A DNA stretch of 64,000 nt. It comes from a phage. How positions within the stretch are numbered: the first letter of the stretch is position 1; each line of letters begins with the position of its first letter. The DNA lies in the NCBI GenBank assembly GCA_012646185.1, contig GCA_012646185.1_4706.1. One strand, written 5' to 3'. The notes beneath the pieces are model-generated. The model did not search any database. It was not told the DNA's origin and was given only the letters and a program-made list of their open reading frames with translations. Made by a program: the position numbers and the translations under genes. This document shows, piece after piece, positions 45,987 through 60,341 of this stretch.

Positions 45987-46044
45987 AAAAAAAAAAAAAT
46001 AGATAGCATATCTTCCTCCCTACCCATAACGGGCGGGGAGGAAG
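45985..46044. terminator. bidirectional terminator at convergent junction: A15 run (45985-45999) plus extended GC hairpin (46012-46044)
   Basis: cttcctccc/gggaggaag arms with inner ccc/ggg stem; T15 in minus sense follows the hairpin after stop of 46062-46400. Confidence 0.55.
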
Positions 46045-46061
46045 GTTTATGTCAATTTAAC

Positions 46062-47358: not shown

Positions 47359-48933
47359 TTACAATTCAAAATCTTCATCGATAACACGCTGGGTAAGCAC
47401 TTTGTCGCTGAAGAACTCCACCTTGCGCTGATGGTATTTACGGTGCGCTTCGATAGAAGTACATACCAGATACCAGAACGTTGGCGTCATTCCTTCAAAC
47501 TTCCCTTTCAGCTGACGCAGTCGCCCCAACACCTGAATGTTGCCGGTTCGTGACCCCATCGCTAACGTCATGAACGTCATCACCAAGTCAGGGAGGTCGA
47601 TACCTGTACCTGCCGATTTCACCGTCGTAACGCTAATATCGTTATCCAGCAAGACCATGAAATCTTCTTCAGCAGTATAAGGACCGATCTCTAGCTCAGG
47701 AATACGCTCACTGAGATAGTGCGACAACGACTTACACATATCAACGGTTGCACAATACACCAGCATCTTCATGCCTTCCTGATACTGGTTCATGAAACCT
47801 TTGATGATAACGGTATAGATGAAGTTAAAATACGCGAGTTTGAGTTGCTTGTTCTTCATGATAGACTGTTCGAATATCGTGTGTGAATAAGCTCCGCCAA
47901 ACCCTTTGTATCTGACTTTATCTGTACTGCGTAGTCGATATGTTACCGCATTTACCGCAATATATTTCTTGTATTCGCCTTTTGCATAACGGGCTTCTTT
48001 CGGATACATCAAATACAACATCTGTTCGATAAACGGATCATCGGACACCGCCGTTGCCGACAGATAAATGATTTCCGGAATACTGGCGTAACACTTGACC
48101 TTAAACAAGAAATGCAATGCTTCGTGACACTCGTCATGAATCAGCAAACCTATGCCGGTCTTTTCCCAAAACTCAGCGGGATGAAAGGCATATGGCGCAA
48201 CGCAGTTATTCTTCTCGTAGTCCGCAATATAACGTTGGAACATGTTCAAGGAGAACAATGCGATTTTGAAGTCGAGCTCACCTTGTTCAACCAAGGTTTG
48301 AAACTCCAGCATGCTGTAACGAGGAATGTCGGGATGTGGTGGATCCTCCTTAGCGTTCCCGCGTATCTCAATAACGTCCCCTGGTTCCATCCCGAAGAAG
48401 TTCAGCAGTGAGCTTCGCCAACCTGGCATGTATCTCGGCGACAGAATGATACCCGTCCGTACACCACGTCGGAAGGTAATCTCCTGCGACATGGCCGTTT
48501 TTCCTGACCCCGTTTGAGCGGTGTTTAGGCTCATTCTGAAGGGGGTATCCTTACCCCCGTCCATGTACTCCAACCATTCTTGCTGATCTTGACGCCATGG
48601 AAACTTCCATTTCTTTACGAACTCCACTTCTTTACCTGGTACCGGATCGTGATAGACGATTTCCAACCACTCTTTTCGTATCCCTCGGGAAAAGATAAAA
48701 TCCAAAAACGATTTCAACTGTTCACGGAGTAAGTATACCTCGCTATAATCGCTTCTCGCCGCGGCATACGTGTTTATGGTATCGGTAACCATTCTCCGTG
48801 TACGAGGGTCACGCCGTTTCCTCAGATGCAAACAACGGTCTCGAAGGTAATGGCCTATCAAATGGGCAAATCGAAGTCCGTATCCGCTCAGCCTCATGCC
48901 ATGCGAGAAGACGTCGATACGAGCTAACTTCAT
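47359..48933 (-). CDS. superfamily 2 helicase (DExH box)
   Basis: Walker A TAQTGSGKTAMS, motif II LLIHDECHE, SAT motif YLSATAV, motif VI QVLGRLRQ. Confidence 0.65.
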   Translation of the reverse strand: MKLARIDVFSHGMRLSGYGLRFAHLIGHYLRDRCLHLRKRRDPRTRRMVTDTINTYAAARSDYSEVYLLREQLKSFLDFIFSRGIRKEWLEIVYHDPVPGKEVEFVKKWKFPWRQDQQEWLEYMDGGKDTPFRMSLNTAQTGSGKTAMSQEITFRRGVRTGIILSPRYMPGWRSSLLNFFGMEPGDVIEIRGNAKEDPPHPDIPRYSMLEFQTLVEQGELDFKIALFSLNMFQRYIADYEKNNCVAPYAFHPAEFWEKTGIGLLIHDECHEALHFLFKVKCYASIPEIIYLSATAVSDDPFIEQMLYLMYPKEARYAKGEYKKYIAVNAVTYRLRSTDKVRYKGFGGAYSHTIFEQSIMKNKQLKLAYFNFIYTVIIKGFMNQYQEGMKMLVYCATVDMCKSLSHYLSERIPELEIGPYTAEEDFMVLLDNDISVTTVKSAGTGIDLPDLVMTFMTLAMGSRTGNIQVLGRLRQLKGKFEGMTPTFWYLVCTSIEAHRKYHQRKVEFFSDKVLTQRVIDEDFEL

Positions 48934-50936
48934 AACGTGATTACATCCTCCGGTTTAGGTTCTTTACGCGGTAACAGCATGTAGTCGATCGGATGATCTG
49001 GCTTCATGGTTGGGATATAACTGTTCGGGTTTTGGAACGCATCCAGTTGCTCTTGGTGAGCGAACTTCATACTCAAGGAGCGCATGTTCATGTTCTTCTT
49101 GAAGGTACTGAAGTATCGTGTTGTTCCCTGTTTCGGCATGCGATAATCTTTCGTGTGCGGCGAACGAATCATGCTGGCGTAGAGAATAACATCGAGATGC
49201 GAAAGGTTCATTCGCAGACGCTGAGCGCACAGACGATGCCAATAGTACAGCACGTTTGCAACTTCTTCCGGCGTTGCTTCGTCTTCCGAGAGGAATCCGG
49301 CACTGAAAGAACCTTTCCCGAATTTGAACTCACGTTCGATTTCTTTTGCGTATTCCATCATGTTTTTGTGGATTAACGGCATCTGGAATAACGTACGTGA
49401 ATTGTCCCAATGTTTCAAGTCGAAAATCACAATCCCGTCAGGCGTCACTTCCCAGCTATGGCGTTTAAGATAACGGATAAACGCTTTACTCGGTACAACA
49501 GGACGACCGCAGAAATCGAAATTGACTTTGAGCTTACGATAGCTTTCATCTTTCCTGTCGTAAATCTCCATATCGCAAAGCGTCATGTTGAACAGACGCT
49601 GTGGTATCAGCGAACTGATTTCTTCCGCTTCGGCTACGTCGTACAACATGTTAGCAAGACCTAACTTCATCTTAATCAACACGTGTTTACCTTTCAGCTC
49701 ACGTGCGAGTTTGATGTCGTTCATGTTCTGGCTGTAGCGAAGGATATGCTGATATTCCGGTGGGATTGGTGCTGTAGAGACCGTTGACGAACCATCGTGG
49801 TGTTTGGTAGAAAGAATGTTCTGCGTTACCTGTTGCGAGCAGGTACGCGCTGCACCATCGCCGACATTATCAGTCAATGCGAAGTTATGACTTAATTCAC
49901 CGTAACACGTTGTACATACCCCAGCAGGATCGGGATGATGACAATAGTTAACGGAGCGCATGCGTACCGTCGTGCCGATCAATTCTTTCATGTGTGGTTG
50001 TATCGCTACCAACGAACCGTCGTCACGAATAATGAATCGACCGTGGAAACCACGCAGGTCGGTCTCATCGCGGATTGGCATCGGGATGGTCTCTTTACTA
50101 CCACAATCACCAGGATGAAGTCGTTGTACAACCGCTGTCGCTATCTGAAGTTCACGACCGAAATATTCAGACTTTTTAATCTGCTCTTTGTTGAACAGCA
50201 ACGATTTCGCCGCAGAACGACTTTCTTTCAAGCTGTCAGGAAGAGAGATCAAACCGGCTGCGTACGACCGCATTACCGGATCGCGGAATATCTCGGAGTT
50301 AATATCAGTCAAGAATCCACGCATCCCAATACACTGTAGCACCTGCCCAATCGAAACGTGTTCGGTTCTTACCGCACGTGCGATAGGGTTTGCATGTAAC
50401 GTTTTATCGGTGCTCAGTACCTTCGTCAGTTTCTTGTATGCGCTTTCAATGCCTTCGCGGGTGGGTTCCGCTTCGGCGATGATTTTCTTAACTTCGGGGT
50501 GTACAGTAATCTGATAAAAATCATCCGCGCAAATCGTTGTTACGTATTCCTCCAACGCATACGTAAAGAAGTTATATACATTGTTAAACATATCGAACAG
50601 TGCTTTCCAGAGAACCTCACGATTCTCTTGTGGATAAGCATACATGCATTGACGATACGCTGCGCTTTGCAACGCAACCGATGAACCCGCTGTGAACTTG
50701 CGTTTATCGACCAGGTTCTCTTTTGTCAATGGTGTCTCAGGATACATGCGATGTACAGACCAGTGCATGTAACTAAAGAAAATGCGTCGCGCACGTAATT
50801 CATGAACGCCATCGTCCATCTCGATATATACACGGTCATTAGGCTGTGCCCATTCGAACACCTCATCAACCGGCCAATGCATAAGCTCGCGTGCCCTCAC
50901 ACGACGTTTCGTGGTGGTTGTCTGTGTTGTAATCAT
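48930..50936 (-). CDS. RNA polymerase beta-prime-like subunit (C-terminal-type fragment of a split phage multisubunit RNAP)
   Basis: RSVNYCHHPDPAGVCTTCYG (nt ~49900-49945) parallels E. coli beta-prime SVVSCDTDFGVCAHCYG; following GDGAARTCSQQVTQNILSTKHHDG parallels the trigger-loop start [28 protein letters not shown]. Confidence 0.7.
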   Translation of the reverse strand: MITTQTTTTKRRVRARELMHWPVDEVFEWAQPNDRVYIEMDDGVHELRARRIFFSYMHWSVHRMYPETPLTKENLVDKRKFTAGSSVALQSAAYRQCMYAYPQENREVLWKALFDMFNNVYNFFTYALEEYVTTICADDFYQITVHPEVKKIIAEAEPTREGIESAYKKLTKVLSTDKTLHANPIARAVRTEHVSIGQVLQCIGMRGFLTDINSEIFRDPVMRSYAAGLISLPDSLKESRSAAKSLLFNKEQIKKSEYFGRELQIATAVVQRLHPGDCGSKETIPMPIRDETDLRGFHGRFIIRDDGSLVAIQPHMKELIGTTVRMRSVNYCHHPDPAGVCTTCYGELSHNFALTDNVGDGAARTCSQQVTQNILSTKHHDGSSTVSTAPIPPEYQHILRYSQNMNDIKLARELKGKHVLIKMKLGLANMLYDVAEAEEISSLIPQRLFNMTLCDMEIYDRKDESYRKLKVNFDFCGRPVVPSKAFIRYLKRHSWEVTPDGIVIFDLKHWDNSRTLFQMPLIHKNMMEYAKEIEREFKFGKGSFSAGFLSEDEATPEEVANVLYYWHRLCAQRLRMNLSHLDVILYASMIRSPHTKDYRMPKQGTTRYFSTFKKNMNMRSLSMKFAHQEQLDAFQNPNSYIPTMKPDHPIDYMLLPRKEPKPEDVITL

Positions 50937-51081
50937 TATTACTTTCCGATTTAAATGGTTTTATCATACGGTTTACCAATTCCGTTGGAATTTACTATCA
51001 TCATGATAGCATCGGGAATCCCTTCTCTTAGGTTATGTAGGTGTTAATATATCTCCACTGCCGGAGTAAAAGTCGGCAACA

Positions 51082-51567
51082 TTACCCGGCTTTCTGTCGT
51101 AGAGCGTACGGATCCATAGCGTCTGATATATCCGAAACAACCGTGAGAATGAAGCCCTTTATCTGTCTCACTTCGGTCACACGCAATCCTTTATCGTTAC
51201 GGTATACGTTTTCTTCACCAACCAACTTTGGTCGGATAACATAAACGCCATCAACATACGGGAATGTCGAATACGGATAAACACCAATAGAAATGATGTT
51301 TGGATAATCGCCTCGAAGGTCGCGTCCGAACTTATCAACTCGACCATAAATCGTTCCATCCGCACCTTCCACCTCAATGAGATCATTTCGAATATCCTGA
51401 AATAGCTGTTCTAAGGTGTCGGCGGGGTACGCGTATGCGACGCCTAACGCACGATCCTCGATCGTTTTGACATTGAATCCGTTAAGCCAAACAATCCGTT
51501 CATTCGCCCATGTTTCTTCATATACCGTTAACCCATCGCCGTATATGTTGGCGTGTGCTATCTCCAT
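51082..51567 (-). CDS. hypothetical protein (161 aa)
   Basis: ORF with GAGGAAATGAGATT before ATG. Confidence 0.5.
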   Translation of the reverse strand: MEIAHANIYGDGLTVYEETWANERIVWLNGFNVKTIEDRALGVAYAYPADTLEQLFQDIRNDLIEVEGADGTIYGRVDKFGRDLRGDYPNIISIGVYPYSTFPYVDGVYVIRPKLVGEENVYRNDKGLRVTEVRQIKGFILTVVSDISDAMDPYALRQKAG

Positions 51568-51668
51568 AATCTCATTTCCTCTTCTACGTAGAAATAGATG
51601 ACATGTTGGATATACGTTGCCTTTGCATATATTGCTTTATTTCCGTCAGAAATAACGGAAAATAAAAA

Positions 51669-51711
51669 CAACGACATAATTCCCTCCCACCTCCACATGG
51701 GAGAGGGAGGG
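51669..51711 (-). promoter_or_regulatory. extended GC hairpin CCCTCCC/GGGAGGG (inner ctcc/ggag stem) followed on minus strand by AATTATGTCGTTG
   Basis: Arms 51682-51688 and 51705-51711; directly after stop of 51725-52087. Confidence 0.4.
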
Positions 51712-51724
51712 TTATTCGTGTTTA

Positions 51725-52087
51725 TTATTCTACGCTGTCTTCTTCCGTATCTTCCTCTTCAGAACCATCGAATGTTTTCATTGTGACGGTGGTATCCCAG
51801 TTAGCCGCGTAATCGGCCATCGCTTCACGCAGCGCTTCTTCACCAGCATCACCAGCCAGGTCAAGTACAACCAAACCTTGTGCGACGTTTTGAGCAACGG
51901 TATCAATAACGGTTGCATCTTCTTCAAAACTACGTACGGGTTCAATGGTACCTACATCAACAGCATAGTTCGTGGTTGCTGTAAACACGGCGACTTGTAG
52001 CGCATTGCTATCTTCATCATGCAGTGCTGCTTCAATACCGATTGGACGAGCCAGTTCTTGCAGTGTTAATTTGCGAATTAAGTTCAT
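51725..52087 (-). CDS. small acidic protein (120 aa); paralog of 52586-52996 product
   Basis: Shares AQGLVVLDLAGDAGEEAL versus ARGLMLLELFGEQGRTEL segment; acidic C-terminus EEEDTEEDSVE. Confidence 0.5.
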   Translation of the reverse strand: MNLIRKLTLQELARPIGIEAALHDEDSNALQVAVFTATTNYAVDVGTIEPVRSFEEDATVIDTVAQNVAQGLVVLDLAGDAGEEALREAMADYAANWDTTVTMKTFDGSEEEDTEEDSVE

Positions 52088-52119
52088 TATGTTTTCCTCA
52101 GGTGAATGTTAGCAATCGT

Positions 52120-52467
52120 TTAAAACTTTAAAACTTTTTCGATACGATGGTTGACGAGTTCATTGAACGACTCTTCAGCTTGTTCGATGATTTCATCAAC
52201 GTCGATATCTAATTGTTGGGGTTGGATAACATGCTCTTTCATGGTTTCCAGCCAGTATTCGGCTTTAATCATGACGTTAGCGACGTGTTCGACCTGGCTG
52301 CGTATGTCGACGATCTGGCAGTCAGGATTGTTAATATCGATGATGTGTCCGTGGTGGTTGATAAAACCTAGCTTATTTGATGCCCTTACCGCATCGCGGG
52401 TAAGTTCTTGCAAGATTAAATTATTAACGTAGTTCACTGCTACGGAACGATTTTCGTTATCACTCAT
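52120..52467 (-). CDS. hypothetical protein (~115 aa)
   Basis: Start moved to ATG 52467 (MSDNENR) with AAAGAGG SD. Confidence 0.5.
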   Translation of the reverse strand: MSDNENRSVAVNYVNNLILQELTRDAVRASNKLGFINHHGHIIDINNPDCQIVDIRSQVEHVANVMIKAEYWLETMKEHVIQPQQLDIDVDEIIEQAEESFNELVNHRIEKVLKF

Positions 52468-52530
52468 ACCAGGGATCCTCTTTAAGTCATCACATTCTAG
52501 TGTTAAGCAGTTAAAATAAACCGTTCCTTT

Positions 52531-52574
52531 TATCAGCATAAACATCCTCCTCCCACCACATGGGCAGGAGGAGG
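52531..52574 (-). promoter_or_regulatory. GC hairpin (cctcctcc/ggaggagg) followed on minus strand by TTTATGCTGAT box
   Basis: Inverted repeat 52546-52553/52567-52574; box about 80 nt upstream of the SD-supported start at 52467. Confidence 0.4.
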
Positions 52575-52585
52575 CGTAATATGCA

Positions 52586-52996
52586 TCAGAAAGGAGGACG
52601 ATCTTTAAATTCTAGCAACGTGTCTTCGAAGCAAGCGATAAGTTCAGACTGCAATTCGGTACGGCCTTGTTCACCGAAGAGTTCCAGCAACATTAACCCC
52701 CGAGCGGTCTTCGTAGCAACCTCTTCGCAGATGCGGAGATCGTGAACTTCATCATCGCCGACATCTTTACGTAACTGCGCTGCAATGGGCTTAAGATTGC
52801 CGTTTTCATCGTGTTCGTCACGAAATGCATCATAAGCCGCATCGATGTTCGCGATCCGTGTCAACCCTTCAGAATCCCGCCAGTCTCGATATAATCCAAG
52901 AAGACGGTTATGATTCTTCGTTTTGACGTTCGGTGCCGGAAGGTTGCGCAACAGATGTGGTGTAATCATTGCTATCACGCTATCCGAATGATCCAT
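52586..52996 (-). CDS. small protein (136 aa); paralog of 51725-52087 product
   Basis: See 51725-52087. Confidence 0.5.
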   Translation of the reverse strand: MDHSDSVIAMITPHLLRNLPAPNVKTKNHNRLLGLYRDWRDSEGLTRIANIDAAYDAFRDEHDENGNLKPIAAQLRKDVGDDEVHDLRICEEVATKTARGLMLLELFGEQGRTELQSELIACFEDTLLEFKDRPPF

Positions 52997-53007
52997 CGTA
53001 TACCTCG

Positions 53008-55176
53008 TTAGCTTTCGCAGTCATCTGCGTCGATGATTTGTCCGCCAGCAACGTTCAGTTGATGATACAGAATCCTCAACGCACGGTTGCCGCCAATGGG
53101 ATACTTCTCGAAGTTGGTTGCAATAGGAATCGCTGACGGTTTATCGGTCGCATAGATGCTTTCAGTGATGCTATCCACCTGTTTTGGATTGTTCGCATAA
53201 TCCATAAAGACGCTCGCGAACCATCCGCCAGCAAAGGCGGTAACTTCGCGATGTTCAGATTCACCACAGTAACGAGTTGGTTGCTCTTTACCCGGAGAAC
53301 TGTATTTATCGCTATTACTGAGTTTCGACGGTAGTCCATGCGCTTGCAGTTTAGGGATGCCCACCGCTGACCAGTCGTTCGCCGTCTTCTCCAACATCAT
53401 GATGTACGTGTCACCGATCGCAATATCGTTCTTGGTTGTCCGCCACTGCCCAGAACGCCCACGATACCGTACAGGACCTTTCTTCAACGGGAACTCACGA
53501 ATCAGATTCTCCATACGTTCTGAACCTGCTGCGATACTGTCTGTCGGGATATAAACTTCCGTACCGTGGCGTTGTACGTACCGTAAATGATCCCATTTAT
53601 CCTCATCCGTGATACAGTATTTTTCAACAACCTGTTCCACGAATTCAGGACTGACGATATAGTAGTAGCGCATCAGTGTGTTCCAAGCGGTCTCCAGATC
53701 GCCTGCATCCATCACCGGTTTCAGTTCACGCATGATCTGATCACCAACGCCGTTGATGTAAGGTGCGTTAACACGACTTAAACTCATCCTTTTGATTACC
53801 GTACTATCGTCGAACATGAAGTCCGCAACGTTACCCCATTGGTCAACCGGCATTTCATCGTCTTCCATGATGTCGGTTACGACGAATTTATCACCCGCCA
53901 TACCGGTGAATTTAAACCCGATACCTGGAACAACGTCGTACGTGTACGTGATGGTCACACGCCAATCATCGAGATTCTCTTTACGATAATCGCGGGTCGG
54001 TAACACATGACGTAGCTGTCCGTTGGGATTGCGGATATCAATACCGTGTTCAGCATCAGCCAGGTTCAACCACCACATCACCGTTTGATGATGACGTATC
54101 GGCGTACCAACGCGTTCACGTTCGTACTTACGAACAGCATCCTGAATTCGGGTGTAAAGCAAACCAATCGCGTTCTCGTATTTCAGGAATTGACGATACG
54201 GAGGACGCATCTTCTCTTCCATCATAATCGCACGCTCGCGGGCTTGACGTCCAGAACGACGATGCCGGTCGCTGACAACATCGATATCCGTTACACGCGC
54301 ATTCGGTTCCGCGTAAGTGAGGTCGTCGTAAACATAATCCACGCGCTGAAGATTACACGTCATCATGTCAACAACGCTGAGGATAGGATCGATTTCGCGT
54401 GTTGCTGCAAGTAACCCATCCTTACGAATACGCTCACCGTTCTCGGGTATTGCTTGATATACCTCATCGTCACCGTAGAGATTGATTGGGTATCGTGATT
54501 TACCTGATGTGATCGTCCGCTTCTCAATGCCGGTACTGGTGAAATGCTTCAATACACCACGACGGGCAACACCACCATCCTCGATACACTGATAGAAGCT
54601 ACCGAAACACACTTTGCAATCGCGACCGTAACCCCACTCGCGCGTTTCTTGATTGATCGCTGGGCTTTCCATCAAACGAGAATATCGCGGTACGATCTGG
54701 CCTCGACGAAGGGAATGGAACAAGTTGGTTGGTCGAAAACGGAAACCGTACTGCTGATGCATGATGTGATGCTCAGGCACTTCAAGCAAGCGTAGCTCGT
54801 GACGGTTACCATCCTCTTGGTTTTCATACAGCACGTAATGCATCGTGTTTGTTTTGATGCTGTTTGCTGTATGCCCCGGTTGGAAACGTGGGATGATATC
54901 TATGATGCGAGATTCGACTGGAAACTCTACTGACCACGTGTTCTGTCCGTACTGGTATTCGATCCCCGTCGTCAGTCGGGACGGTTTCGCATCTTTGATA
55001 ACCAACGCTTGGCTAAGATGTCCACCAAACATCGCAGCGCGCTGTGCTGAGTTATAATGCAGTAGCCCGTTAAGTCCAGTCCCTACGCCAGTATACTCCT
55101 GTTTAATGGGAATGATTTTACCTTCAGCGATTGCCTGCTTCACAGATTCATAAAGAGGTTTTTCTTTATAATGCAT
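53008..55176 (-). CDS. RNA polymerase beta-like subunit (C-terminal-type fragment of a split phage multisubunit RNAP)
   Basis: [40 protein letters not shown] parallels E. coli beta [56 protein letters not shown] parallels [45 protein letters not shown] parallels [28 protein letters not shown], with matching spacing. Start moved to ATG 55176 with AGGAAG SD. Confidence 0.75.
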   Translation of the reverse strand: [722 protein letters not shown]

Positions 55177-55206
55177 AGGACTTCCTATTATCGAATTGAG
55201 GTACGT

Positions 55207-55561
55207 CATGTCTAACACGCCCCTGAACGACTTTCTTAAGACAAACCCCGATGACCTCATCCACGATCTTGATTTCAGGAACGTTGTTGAGATGCATCTG
55301 GAATATTTCAAAAATGCCGGACTGGTCTCTACGATAGACATACCACCCGAACGCGCCTACGAATTCGATGGTAACTTTTATGGATTGTGTCGTGTTCTGC
55401 TCGGCGAGGGTAGCGAACCAATGCACTGGATAACCATGAGACTCAATGGTTATCGCGACCCTACGGAATACACCGCCGATGTTCTAACCATGAAGATTGT
55501 CGATACAAGCGCAATCAACACATTAAAACAACAGTACCGCACAATCCACTACAGCGCTTAA
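55207..55561 (+). CDS. hypothetical protein (~118 aa), lone plus-strand gene inside the minus block
   Basis: ATG at 55207 preceded by GAGGT; followed by hairpin 55567-55595; could be spurious. Confidence 0.35.
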
Positions 55562-58550: not shown

Positions 58551-60137
58551 TTATTTTTTTCCTCTTAAATTTACTACGTGTTCATTTAATCGAACAACTA
58601 ATTGCACAAGCTGCTGACGGATATCTGCTGGACAAAGCATCAATCCTTTACGGTCAGCTGGGACTTTCTCAAGGATTTCCGGGCCTGCTGCTGAAACATC
58701 CCAGTCCCATTCACAAAACGCATCGGCCACCATGTTAATACCGACAACCGGTAAAGTTGTACGTTCATCTTCATACATGGCGTGTGGATACAATTTATTG
58801 ACAGTAATGATCTCCTGTGGTTTTAATTGGTGGATAATCTGATAAACATCGTCGCGTTTGACCTGGATACCTACGGTCAGCGCTGCCAGTTGAGGAAAAC
58901 CCCAATGGTCTAATAAGCAAGCTGCAATCGCTAACGCTTTTGCTTGATGCACGGCTTCAATCGGTGCCAGACTTCTCGCCGGAAGATGGCTATCAAGCAA
59001 CCATTGTGCCAGTGCTCGGCATCCACGGTTGATTGGTTTTAACTCAACGGTGTCATCATGTTTAGCGTACGTGTATCCGTCGTAACGTTTTGCGATACGC
59101 GCATACATGTCTTCAACTTTACCGTAAGGTGCCGTTTCGTCGACGTCGTGCAACACACGTTCCATCTGGGTAAGATACGCGATATCAAGAATGAGTACAC
59201 GCGGTGAACGTTTATCTTTCACCATCAACGCATCAATCACGCCTTGACTGTCTTCATCTTGCGCGTTCCCTCGTGGGGTTTTCTCACGAATCGGTCCGCT
59301 GAAACGTCGTTCCGTACAAAGGTTATTCACATAGCTAAAGATCAGTGTTACCAGATGCGTACAACTCACCAACACCCCATCTTTAACGACAGGCTGTACG
59401 GCTTGGTCCAAGTCGCGTACGGCGAGACGGCGGACGATGGCTTGTGAACGCAACCAGCCGGGCACTTTCTCCGTCGACATGTAATCCACGGTCATCGACA
59501 GCGTGATCTTTTTATCACCCGTCTGTGCGCGGATATAGTCTTCCAGTCGGTCGTAAGCGGCGATATCGTGAATGCGTGTTTTATACATCAACGACATAGC
59601 CACTTCTTCTTTACGAACCGTTCCGTACGTTTTCCCTGCGTCAATCAGAAACTCTGCCCAAATCGGCACCATCAGACGGACGTAGATCGCTAACGCCGTT
59701 AACTCAACGTAATCATTTCGTAAATAGGTTTTCTCAGGAATATCATCCTCACCTAATGTTGTTTTCATGTCCGGCGGTAATTTTACCCAACCCGGGGTAT
59801 TACACAACGCCAGAATCTCTTCGTACACAACCGGTTTGTAAATTTCACCAACAGCGCGACTCAACTCCTCCATTTGTTGTTGTGGAGCAATGTAGTTATC
59901 CATCGCTTCACGTGCTTTAACGAACCCTTCGAAGATGTCGTCAATTCGACGTGGGTTCTTTTGTTCTATCCAGGCGAGATACTTGTTAATCTCCCGCATC
60001 TGATTGCTAGCCATATCCCCATCAATCTTGATGTAACCCTGACCTGAAAATTCCACAGTACGTCCATCACGGTGTTTGATGAGATAGTGATCCAGCTTTT
60101 CTTTTCCTTGCGTCGTAATGACGGGCACTATGTGCAT
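58551..60137 (-). CDS. hypothetical protein (~528 aa)
   Basis: Start moved to ATG 60137 (MHIVPV) with AAGAGG SD. Confidence 0.6.
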   Translation of the reverse strand: MHIVPVITTQGKEKLDHYLIKHRDGRTVEFSGQGYIKIDGDMASNQMREINKYLAWIEQKNPRRIDDIFEGFVKAREAMDNYIAPQQQMEELSRAVGEIYKPVVYEEILALCNTPGWVKLPPDMKTTLGEDDIPEKTYLRNDYVELTALAIYVRLMVPIWAEFLIDAGKTYGTVRKEEVAMSLMYKTRIHDIAAYDRLEDYIRAQTGDKKITLSMTVDYMSTEKVPGWLRSQAIVRRLAVRDLDQAVQPVVKDGVLVSCTHLVTLIFSYVNNLCTERRFSGPIREKTPRGNAQDEDSQGVIDALMVKDKRSPRVLILDIAYLTQMERVLHDVDETAPYGKVEDMYARIAKRYDGYTYAKHDDTVELKPINRGCRALAQWLLDSHLPARSLAPIEAVHQAKALAIAACLLDHWGFPQLAALTVGIQVKRDDVYQIIHQLKPQEIITVNKLYPHAMYEDERTTLPVVGINMVADAFCEWDWDVSAAGPEILEKVPADRKGLMLCPADIRQQLVQLVVRLNEHVVNLRGKK

Positions 60138-60194
60138 AACAACCTCTTTTCGCGGTTCCCTGTTAAAACGTCTTCTGTGACGTCTACCACAAAG

Positions 60195-60210
60195 GTAATA
60201 TAAGCGTGAA
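60195..60210 (-). promoter_or_regulatory. variant of the conserved promoter-like element (gtaatataagcgtgaa), about 58 nt upstream of ATG at 60137
   Basis: Matches the 20-mer at 14177 and 42189 at 14 of 16 positions; minus-sense reads TTCACGCTTATATTAC. Confidence 0.3.
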
Positions 60211-60341
60211 TAATTTTGGATTCCGGCTGAGTTATCGCTCAGCATGCAAGGCATCCCGCCGAAGCGAGACACCTTGCACTAACGGAAAATATTCGCGTTA
60301 CCTTCTGAATCGAAGACTCAGAATGCGATGCTAAAGCGTTA

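Follow-up and report, generated by a model that had tools for sequence, protein, structure and literature searches.

Apart from the orthologs in phage Goslar, the closest described systems are gp68 of PhiKZ, the internal proteins of T4 and DNA mimics of the Ocr/ArdA type. PhiKZ gp68, the fifth subunit of the non-virion RNA polymerase (nvRNAP), is specific to a phage lineage, has no cellular homolog and is encoded beside nvRNAP genes. IPI, IPII and IPIII of T4 are small, are present at hundreds of copies per particle, arise from a variable (hyperplastic) locus and have only a short conserved segment in common; they are basic, are made late, and carry a cleaved N-terminal sequence for capsid targeting. 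We examined two small genes, designated A and B, within a 64-kb stretch of phage DNA (all of which is termed the window). Like gp68 they are lineage-specific, lack a cellular homolog and are encoded beside nvRNAP genes; however, gp68 is 521 aa and is kept across the chimalliviruses, whereas A and B are confined to the Goslar clade and are not similar to it. Goslar gp168, the ortholog of A, reaches a copy number comparable to that of the T4 internal proteins, but A is very acidic, is transcribed early, has its shared segment toward the C-terminus, and is only a candidate for packaging. With the Ocr/ArdA-like mimics A has in common a length of ~120 aa, a pI of ~4, a charge of ~-21 and early expression, although searches of Pfam, NCBIfam, PHROG and PDB found no family that its sequence matches; the combination of small size, pI <5 and large negative charge is seen for A, while B is only mildly acidic (net charge -9). 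The explanation of the whole that we favor, and hold to be fairly probable, is that A and B are ancient paralogs within an island peculiar to the Goslar clade, and that they encode small acidic binding proteins, not polymerase components.

A gene island at the betaC/beta'C junction

Genes A and B lie exactly where the original prediction had placed two ORFs, on the minus strand, and contain the segments that it quoted; the further small gene that they were said to flank is gene C (Table 1). The A and B proteins are 95% and 98.5% identical in amino acids to gp168 (YP_009820853.1) and gp170 (YP_009820855.1) of Escherichia phage vB_EcoM_Goslar, where the gene order and neighbors are the same and where both products are annotated as hypothetical proteins, nothing more. 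That they are genuine protein-coding genes follows from their presence as orthologs in three lineages and from a dN/dS of 0.10 for A; in addition, published mass spectrometry of Goslar detected gp168, gp169 and gp170 peptides. The A protein (13 kDa, pI 4.05, net charge -21) has an acidic C-terminal tail, the sequence of which differs among strains; the B protein ends in P-F, both residues (P135 and F136) being invariant in the ortholog alignment. Sequence searches of Pfam, PHROGs, NCBIfam and PDB with A and B gave nothing above noise, the best weak match being that of B to a designed helical bundle (E 0.0026, noise level). AlphaFold2 models from the family alignments of A and B were unreliable (mean pLDDT 39.0 and 49.6), so that a fold search with them has no meaning.

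Table 1. Genes, shared module and RNA hairpins of the region (positions are those of the window)
Feature	Position	Strand	Length	Remarks
nvRNAP beta'C gene	48930..50936	(-)		PhiKZ gp74 homolog; Goslar gp165 ortholog
Gene D	51082..51567	(-)	161 aa	Goslar gp166 ortholog; last island gene
Tiny ORF	51555..51677	(-)		Goslar gp167 counterpart
RNA hairpin 2	51681..51712	(-)		just 3' of A stop; loop CCCAUGUGG, then ATTATG and a T-rich stretch
Gene A	51725..52087	(-)	120 aa	Goslar gp168 ortholog
Shared module in A	51809..51919	(-)		residues 57-93: DATVIDTVAQNVAQGLVVLDLAGDAGEEALREAMADY; from hhalign and reciprocal HMMs
Gene C	52120..52467	(-)	115 aa	Goslar gp169 ortholog
RNA hairpin 1	52546..52574	(-)		just 3' of B stop; loop CCCAUGUGG, then TTTATGCTG
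Gene B	52586..52996	(-)	136 aa	Goslar gp170 ortholog
Shared module in B	52631..52741	(-)		residues 86-122: DLRICEEVATKTARGLMLLELFGEQGRTELQSELIAC; from hhalign and reciprocal HMMs
nvRNAP betaC gene	53008..55341	(-)		homolog of PhiKZ gp71 and gp73; Goslar gp171 ortholog

The pair had been described as sitting between beta-like and beta-prime-like genes, and these flanking genes proved to be nvRNAP betaC and beta'C. The betaC gene matched PHROG 3295 ("RNA polymerase beta subunit") at E 2e-180 and, weakly, Rpb2_6; it was found by tblastn with PhiKZ gp71 and gp73 at E 9e-42 and 2e-39. The mechanical ORF has 777 aa, but translation probably starts at 55176, for a product of 722 aa; this is the annotated length of Goslar gp171, which Table S4 of bioRxiv 10.64898/2026.04.21.720040 lists as nvRNAP. 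The beta'C gene matched PHROG 3015 at E 1e-169 and was 29.5% identical over 96% to PHIKZ074 (tblastn). With an ortholog of PhiKZ gp68 at 58551-60272 (E 2e-35), and the remaining two subunit genes annotated elsewhere in Goslar as gp247 and gp188, all five known nvRNAP subunits (gp55, gp68, gp71-73, gp74 and gp123 in PhiKZ) have orthologs of their own.

Gene order in the window follows that of PhiKZ gp66-gp75, which map to genes other than A and B, save for 2.07 kb between the equivalents of gp73 and gp74. In six other chimallivirus lineages (PhiKZ, Deimos-Minion, RSL2, PhiEaH1, RisingSun and KpGz_1) betaC and beta'C are adjacent, being 2-150 nt apart or abutting; in comparison with these, a gene island at the junction occurs only in the Goslar clade. 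The island has the order B-C-A-D in the window and holds 13 genes in L014; in L006, A follows directly upon B and the contig ends soon past A. Homologs of A and B were found in Goslar-clade phages only, with orthologs of both in the Goslar group, L006 and L007/L014, the betaC proteins of which are 58-65% identical; IMG/VR scans gave hits in Goslar and one close relative and in nothing else. In every lineage B comes directly after betaC: the gap from the betaC stop to the B start is 11 nt in the window and in L002, B overlaps betaC by 17 nt in L007, L008 and L014, and a 171-nt spacer separates them in L006.

Between strains, the hypervariability of B is sharply bounded, with nucleotide identity of 55-63% in B versus 85-95% in the flanks; dN is 0.40 for B versus 0.003 for betaC (>100-fold faster), and strains with betaC 99.6% identical have B alleles just 54% identical. 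No report of the clade restriction of the island or of the hypervariability of B was found in the literature searched. If our reading is right, gp170 would be a sharply bounded hypervariable cassette, and such loci usually hold host-range or anti-defence functions; likewise the betaC/beta'C junction, fixed in the other chimalliviruses examined, would be, in one clade, a site where accessory genes accumulate.

The module common to A and B

BLASTP failed to align A with B at E<=100, and more sensitive methods were therefore required. Full Smith-Waterman alignment scored 68, compared to 28 +/- 4.9 (maximum 55) for 2000 shuffles, an EVD P of ~1.6e-5; the corresponding orthologs of another strain scored 64. 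When the families of diverse orthologs were compared using hhalign, residues 57-93 of A aligned with residues 86-122 of B at a probability of 88% (P 3.2e-6) and a score of 39.5; 300 column-shuffled versions of family B scored no higher than 19.9 and the reversed family scored 12.9. With shallow alignments the hhalign probability was only 25%, and P strengthened as more divergent orthologs were included (7.7e-4, then 7e-6, then 3.2e-6). The HMM tests were reciprocal and non-circular, each profile being built from one family only. Among 760 ORFs all four B orthologs (E 6e-5 to 0.03) came immediately below the A orthologs with the A-only profile, and those of A (E 1.3e-5 to 0.12) came immediately below the B orthologs with the B-only profile, noise beginning at E ~0.4; among 1746 ORFs, comprising the window and the remaining ~173 kb of the Goslar genome, the sole sub-threshold match of each profile was the other gene (E 1e-5 to 1e-4).

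The claim that the two products share a segment is thus borne out by alignment and by the reciprocal HMM matches, and the further claim of a paralog pair stands in a narrower form: the homology is real, but it is remote and is carried by one module. The module covers ~37 residues, with the rough pattern V-A-x3-A-x-G-L-x2-L-x-L-x-G-x2-G, and the significant signal is confined to ~37-45 residues; the remainder is collinear, not significant. A global alignment was likewise collinear but weak (P 2e-4), and similarity does not extend over most of the length. Judged by sequence, A and B are ancient, strongly diverged paralogs which keep one module of ~40 residues. The duplication predates the lineage splits, because both ortholog lines occur in the Goslar group, L006 and L007/L014. 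Convergence, or a mobile module that the two share, keeps some small residual probability. No report of homology between gp168 and gp170 was found in the literature searched; if true, the relationship assigns to a family two ORFan genes of Goslar, a model nucleus-forming phage of E. coli.

A larger superfamily uniting A, B, C and additional small genes of L007/L014 through an N-terminal helix (M-S-x-L/I-S-K/R-L...E-L) is not claimed. Leave-one-out HMMs for such a grouping were partly positive (p159 E 3e-4, p165 0.06, A 0.8, p147 2.6), and hhalign gave P 0.0017 for A with p172a and 0.0075 for A with p159.

Early transcription and abundance in particle preparations

In published Goslar RNA-seq the read densities (reads per nt) were 1.47 for gp171, 1.44 for gp170, 1.39 for gp169, 1.59 for gp168 and 0.40 for gp167, and under ChmA knockdown gp171 to gp168 changed by +0.6 to +1.1 log2 (+0.84 to +1.12 for gp168), which places them in the early, ChmA-independent class. 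Genes gp171 to gp168 are one early transcript. Its density falls ~4-fold at the position of hairpin 2 (dG -26.8 kcal/mol, z -5.3); across hairpin 1 (dG -30 kcal/mol, z -5.0), which is kept in L002, no drop was seen in Goslar RNA-seq at 30 mpi. The loop motif of the two hairpins occurs only twice in 64 kb. A model in which hairpin 1 and TATG split betaC plus B from C plus A as separate transcription units was rejected for the early program, because density is flat from gp171 to gp168 at 30 mpi and all of these genes are of the early class. Such a division would have accounted for the mass-spectrometric abundances.

Those abundances, in copies per virion-equivalent of Goslar, were ~219 for gp168, ~92 for gp169 and ~2.8 for gp170, compared to ~0.25 for gp165 and 0 for gp171 of the nvRNAP (bioRxiv 10.64898/2026.04.21.720040); gp168 had already been reported at >200 copies per virion, and was listed by the authors among high-copy virion-associated proteins. 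The same preparation held chimallin, ChmC and PhuZ (~171 copies), of which chimallin and PhuZ are early-class and non-virion, and the authors ascribe the three to co-purified nucleus fragments and filaments; by our own scaling ChmC was at ~80 copies (log2FC ~-0.5). Validated packaged proteins (gp41, gp58, gp60, gp61, gp208 and gp209, and gp78, gp196 and gp210 of the vRNAP) are late-class, with log2FC of -3 to -7, whereas gp168 does not show late (ChmA-dependent) expression of the structural class. The association of gp168 with particles may represent co-purification, given the chimallin, ChmC and PhuZ in the same preparation and the early expression of gp168 compared to the late expression of packaged proteins. 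Among the peptides listed for gp168 were C-terminal and mid-protein ones. The virion assignment of gp168, gp169, gp158 and gp214, all early-class unlike the validated packaged proteins, needs checking.

Explanations for the pair and other island elements

According to the explanation that we favor, betaC and beta'C, which elsewhere adjoin, were separated by insertion of the island in the nucleus-forming jumbo phages of the Goslar clade, and B, C and A would ride on the early betaC transcript, which ends at the hairpin after A. A and B would be free-standing, small, acidic, alpha-helical binding proteins that became sub-functionalised; the shared module, a predicted helix, Gly-rich turn and helix, may be a common fold or oligomerisation element, with the divergent ends giving different partners. 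The A protein, with a floppy acidic tail, would accumulate to high copy and sediment together with virions or with large phage assemblies of another kind. The B protein would not associate with particles, and would be replaced or diversified rapidly between strains in the way usual for host-interaction genes. Nothing in these findings alters the current view of phage transcription.

It had also been proposed that the two proteins are accessory subunits or regulators of the RNAP. Support for this is contextual, B lying directly after betaC and on one early transcript with it; the evidence against is stronger, and the idea of an accessory subunit is largely unsupported. A and B are not conserved polymerase components: searches of Pfam, PHROG and NCBIfam revealed no homology to any beta or beta' fragment, nor to gp68, and the two genes, rather than being conserved wherever the split polymerase occurs, are missing from the six other lineages that have it. 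A factor restricted to the clade, i.e., B and possibly A as an extra nvRNAP subunit, assembly chaperone or nuclear-import adaptor made in step with betaC, is improbable. The 11-nt gap or 17-nt overlap, and the equal transcript density from gp171 to gp168, argue for it, and the adjacency, with its overlapping stop and start in one lineage, could reflect a true functional tie with the polymerase; the invariant P-F of B resembles a docking tip, and small phage-specific nvRNAP factors do exist, as gp68 and, according to bioRxiv 10.64898/2026.09.21.753271, as Imp7, for import in PhiKZ. Against it stand the separate presence of the gp68 ortholog among the full set of five subunits, the spacer in L006, the divergence of B beside a nearly invariant betaC, and the abundance of gp168 where nvRNAP subunits are near zero. 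We give still less weight to an extended version, in which the Goslar clade added small factors to the nvRNAP operon, B being translationally coupled to betaC and a polymerase partner (assembly or nuclear-import adaptor) through its P-F tip, its early, acidic paralog A being incorporated into particles or attached to the nuclear shell, and the duplicated module thereby connecting the machinery of transcription with a large assembly of the phage.

That A (with C) is instead carried in the virion as an internal or ejected protein, such as an acidic decoy resembling a DNA mimic that enters along with the genome, with B its non-packaged intracellular paralog, is unlikely, yet deserves more credence than any polymerase role. 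The copy numbers of gp168 and gp169 come from CsCl-purified particles, the authors' listing of gp168 agrees with packaging, the nvRNAP subunits, which are soluble and nuclear, were not co-purified, and the size, pI and charge of A fall within the range of Ocr-type mimics. However, both gp168 and gp169 are early while every validated packaged protein is late, early non-virion proteins were recovered in the same preparation, and domain searches (Pfam/PHROG) of A and B detected neither PF12699, the inner-body fold, nor another virion-protein domain. Least probable of all is a resemblance of A to B by chance or convergence, the two acidic proteins each having an amphipathic helix punctuated by Gly. 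The blank BLASTP result, the low probability from shallow alignments, the shortness of the alignable stretch and structure models too poor for comparison speak for this; but P fell as divergent orthologs joined, the best decoy reached only half of the observed score, each profile ranked the orthologs of the other family above 750-1700 other ORFs, helical acidic proteins encoded elsewhere in these islands gave hhalign P of 0.01-0.8, and A and B are collinear, similar in size, and on one strand in one operon. The Avs5/JADA paper was considered and is unrelated to these genes.

For gene C the mechanical ORF runs to 52545, and an internal ATG preceded by the ribosome-binding site AAGAGGA fits the Goslar annotation; C was not significantly related to A or B (hhalign P 0.05 with A, and >0.25 with B, outside the best 25 of 66 pairs). 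Gene D, which is 33% identical in L014, is kept throughout the clade and showed no relation to A or B by hhalign; dN/dS is 0.09 for C and 0.07 for D. The DNA of the tiny ORF is 93% conserved although its frame and length differ (40 aa in the window, 31 aa in Goslar, 34 aa in L002), and its counterpart gp167 has the lowest RNA-seq read density of the region; it is probably a conserved leader or regulatory region, not a gene.

The module common to A and B

Genes A (120 aa) and B (136 aa), which lie with two other small genes, C and D, between the non-virion RNA polymerase (nvRNAP) genes betaC and beta'C, were found at the predicted coordinates, and the peptides quoted from their shared segment were correct. 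BLASTP of A against B gave zero alignments; the Smith-Waterman score was 68, compared with 28 +/- 4.9 (maximum 55) for 2000 shuffles (P ~1.6e-5), and the orthologous pair of a second strain scored 64. Among deposited phages, orthologs of A and B occurred only in Goslar; large protein collections held close A variants (87-99% identical) and B alleles (89-98% and 54%). Exhaustive HMMER searching with the B family turned up P0030 and P0031, both distant orthologs of B, whose contigs (L006, L007-L009) also carried divergent A orthologs, and an A profile search gave further A orthologs, one on the 49-kb contig L014. The hhalign signal between A and B improved as ortholog diversity was added, from P 7.7e-4 (probability 25%) for the first alignments, to 7e-6 (84%) with more diverse orthologs, and to 3.2e-6 (88%; span A57-93 / B86-122) at the fullest diversity; the top score of 300 column-shuffled B-alignment decoys was 19.9 versus 39.5 observed. 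The reciprocal HMM tests were non-circular, with profiles made from A orthologs alone or B orthologs alone and searched against 760 ORFs. The A-only HMM ranked four B orthologs right behind the A orthologs (E 6e-5 to 0.03), the B-only HMM ranked the A orthologs next (E 1.3e-5 to 0.12), and noise began at E ~0.4. Among 1746 ORFs (window plus remaining Goslar genome) the A and B profiles matched each other's gene only. The hhalign, decoy and reciprocal HMM results therefore confirm the homology, and a chance resemblance is unlikely.

The common module is approximately V-A-x3-A-x-G-L-x2-L-x-L-x-G-x2-G-x3-L. The two proteins are similar in size, as the original prediction held, and collinear, but significant likeness is confined to this module; C and D showed no relation to either by hhalign. 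A (13 kDa, pI 4.05, net charge -21) has an acidic tail whose composition is kept in all lineages while its sequence varies; B is 15.5 kDa (pI ~4.9, net charge -9) and every B ortholog ends ...(D/N/T)(R/T)(P/T)PF. A mainly helical structure is predicted for each, but the AlphaFold2 models are unreliable (pLDDT 39 and 50); searches of Pfam, PHROG, NCBIfam and PDB gave no relatives.

An island confined to the Goslar clade

The DNA at 50900-53100 matched that of the nucleus-forming jumbo phage vB_EcoM_Goslar of Escherichia (Chimalliviridae, Goslarvirus) at 92.5% identity, and all relevant genes of the window are on the minus strand. By tblastn, PhiKZ gp66-gp75 and the window were collinear, with gp75 matching the helicase, and no PhiKZ protein was placed within 51082-52996. 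Goslar gp165 and gp171 are labelled as nvRNAP in the preprint on the Goslar virion structure (bioRxiv 10.64898/2026.04.21.720040). The true start of betaC is probably 55176 (722 aa, as in Goslar and strain L002), the mechanical ORF overshooting through 55177-55341; that of C is probably 52467, because the ATGs upstream (overshoot 52468-52545) fall within a hairpin/TATG element.

Features of the island region. Copies per virion are estimates from quantitative MS of CsCl-purified Goslar particles (bioRxiv 10.64898/2026.04.21.720040, Table S4); identity, dN and dN/dS compare the window with strain L002; PhiKZ matches are from tblastn.
Feature	Coordinates	Strand	Goslar gene	Copies per virion	aa identity	dN	dN/dS
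betaC	53008-55341	minus	gp171	0	99.6%	0.003	0.004
B	52586-52996	minus	gp170	~2.8	54%	0.40	dS saturated
C	52120-52467	minus	gp169	~92	91%	0.037	0.09
A	51725-52087	minus	gp168	~219	87.5%	0.076	0.10
Tiny ORF, between A and D	51555-51677	minus	gp167				
D	51082-51567	minus	gp166	~1	86%	0.076	0.07
beta'C	48930-50936	minus	gp165	~0.25	97%	0.018	0.023
Helicase	47359-48933	minus	gp164				
PhiKZ gp68 match (fifth nvRNAP subunit)	58581-60071						
PhiKZ gp71 + gp73 match (betaC half)	53044-55080						
PhiKZ gp74 match (beta'C half)	48975-50903						
Hairpin + TATG	52574-52546	minus					
Hairpin + TATG	51708-51681	minus					
Hairpin + TATG	46044-46012	minus					
Hairpin + TATG	38964-38935	minus					
Hairpin + TATG	32349-32325	minus					
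Hairpin + TATG	23875-23840	minus					
Hairpin + TATG	12675-12650	minus					
Hairpin + TATG	10889-10853	minus					
Hairpin + TATG	10526-10490	minus					
Hairpin + TATG	3934-3903	minus					
Hairpin + TATG	46010-46046	plus					
Hairpin + TATG	52545-52572	plus					
Loop CCCAUGUGG after B	52556-52564	minus					
Loop CCCAUGUGG after A	51693-51701	minus					

Among the lineages compared, betaC and beta'C are separated by other genes in the Goslar clade alone; elsewhere the two are 30 nt apart in PhiKZ, 10 nt in Deimos-Minion, 151 nt in RSL2, 2 nt in PhiEaH1 and 7 nt in RisingSun, and abut in KpGz_1, the closest outgroup (~32% identical). Three lineages of the clade were recovered (betaC 58-65% identical between them). 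The island is B, C, A, tiny ORF and D (2.07 kb) in the Goslar group; B then directly A in L006, whose contig stops shortly past A; and, in L014 and L007, B, seven other small genes, A, a DUF1281 (Api92-like) protein, D and two more (13 genes, 6.5 kb), L007 having in addition an I-TevI/NUMOD3-type homing-endonuclease-like gene (L014:10424-11401; L007:4903-6440). Such mobile-element traffic is consistent with an insertion hot spot at the betaC/beta'C junction. B is first in every case with A further along, D is close to the beta'C end in both lineages with a fully sequenced island, and the middle is the part that grows and shrinks. Adjacent 165- and 147-aa genes in L007 and L014 (L007:1612-2554, L014:7237-8165) are clear tandem paralogs (hhalign 95%, P 2.5e-8), so that with A and B local duplication is recurrent in the island. 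Several island proteins share a similar starting helix (MS-x-L/I-S-R/K-L...E-L), a marginal resemblance that hints at a wider superfamily including A.

Some differences were seen in the neighbouring genes. PhiKZ betaC (63275-66595 of its genome, L003) consists of gp71 and gp73 interrupted by gp72, and the Goslar-type gene (53008-55176) is a single unbroken ORF. The L002 helicase (L002:14016-16277) has a 229-aa in-frame insertion exactly inside its Walker A motif (GSGK | AVRV...VTHN | T) that is absent from the window helicase downstream of beta'C; with Ala at its start, HN at its end and then Thr, it looks like a mini-intein, and a Pfam search with it gave no match. Near-identical A orthologs (P0001, P0005, P0017, P0018, P0022) lie on ~238-250 kb contigs from assemblies labelled Salmonella Enteritidis, E. 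coli O157, Shigella flexneri and Shigella sonnei; sequencing of enterobacterial isolates has therefore picked up Goslar-like phages repeatedly (carrier state or contamination).

Transcription, hairpins and divergence of the island genes

In published RNA-seq comparing ChmA knock-down (in which infection halts at the early vesicle stage) with control at 30 mpi (bioRxiv 10.1101/2023.09.20.558163, Supplementary Table 2), gp165-gp171 changed by +0.1 to +1.1 log2, placing them in the early class along with chimallin gp246 (+0.7 to +1.1) and PhuZ gp234 (+0.35 to +0.54); all validated packaged proteins (gp41, gp58, gp60, gp61, gp208, gp209, and vRNAP gp78/gp196/gp210) were down 3-7 log2. Reads per nt were flat over gp171 (1.47), gp170 (1.44), gp169 (1.39) and gp168 (1.59), fell to 0.40 at gp167 and were 1.0-1.25 at gp166 and gp165. 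B, C and A are therefore on an early betaC transcript that ends at the hairpin after A, and the 80-fold difference in particle-preparation copy number of A and B comes from the fate of the proteins, not from transcription.

That hairpin belongs to a set that are strong and rich in GC, many of them having a 5' arm of CCUCC type and a 3' arm of GGAGG type, and that have TATG (often TTATGCTG) within ~18 nt after them (12/42 hairpins vs 5% expected, binomial P ~1e-6); L007 and L014 have the combination likewise 3' of the A ortholog. TATG is the late nvRNAP promoter and start motif of PhiKZ (PMC4666361), and the combination may serve as a terminator joined to a late promoter. The hairpin 3' of B gave no drop in RNA-seq density at 30 mpi. 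One loop sequence, CCCAUGUGG, is common to the hairpins 3' of B and of A and is found at only these two sites in the 64-kb window (0.22 chance matches expected), and judging from this sequence the 3' hairpin may have been included in the duplication that gave A and B. The tiny ORF, annotated as a gene in Goslar, is probably non-coding: its DNA is 93% conserved while frame and length vary by strain (31, 34, 40 aa), its ATG lies within the TATG after the A hairpin, it holds a second small hairpin, and its RNA-seq density is the lowest of the region.

The dN/dS values of A, C and D show purifying selection and thus real genes. Nucleotide identity falls from 85-95% to 55-63% exactly over B and rises again at its 3' hairpin, a pattern suggesting that one cassette has been exchanged for another allele or has strongly diversified; the module and the C-terminal P-F are invariant within B.

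Roles of A and B

The best-supported reading takes A and B to be ancient, sub-functionalised paralogs in a clade-specific accessory island that would hitch-hike on the early nvRNAP betaC operon. A would be the very acidic, abundant copy, sedimenting together with virions or with other large assemblies of the phage; B, whose C-terminal tip is conserved, would be a protein outside the particle that undergoes rapid replacement; the module, on the simplest view, would be a shared structural or oligomerisation element. The original prediction had suggested accessory RNAP subunits or regulators, for which the operon context speaks; however, A and B are clade-restricted, the canonical nvRNAP subunit set is already complete, B evolves too fast for such a role to fit easily, and nvRNAP subunits are absent where gp168 is abundant. 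We consider an accessory nvRNAP subunit unlikely, the idea being alive mainly for B. True packaging of A in the virion is somewhat less improbable, though still doubtful: the authors count gp168 among the virion-associated proteins that have a high copy number and no known function, but packaging is at odds with its early expression class, and the particle preparation also captured PhuZ filaments and nucleus fragments (bioRxiv 10.64898/2026.04.21.720040). It is thus uncertain whether gp168 and gp169 belong to the virion, their behaviour being that of the early-class contaminants and not that of packaged proteins.

The genes were already known as hypothetical proteins, and the abundance of gp168 was published; what is new is the A-B homology, the clade-restricted island at a gene junction that is otherwise invariant, the hypervariability of the B cassette, and an expression class that does not match the virion assignment. 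The finding is modest, with A and B adding one more family to the accessory paralogs familiar from phages. The virion assignment of the early-class subgroup (gp158, gp214, gp168, gp169) may need re-examination. Goslar gp158 and gp214, also published as high-copy virion-associated, have early-class transcripts (log2FC +0.7 to +1.3), and the gp158 ortholog lies near 40-41.5 kb of the window.
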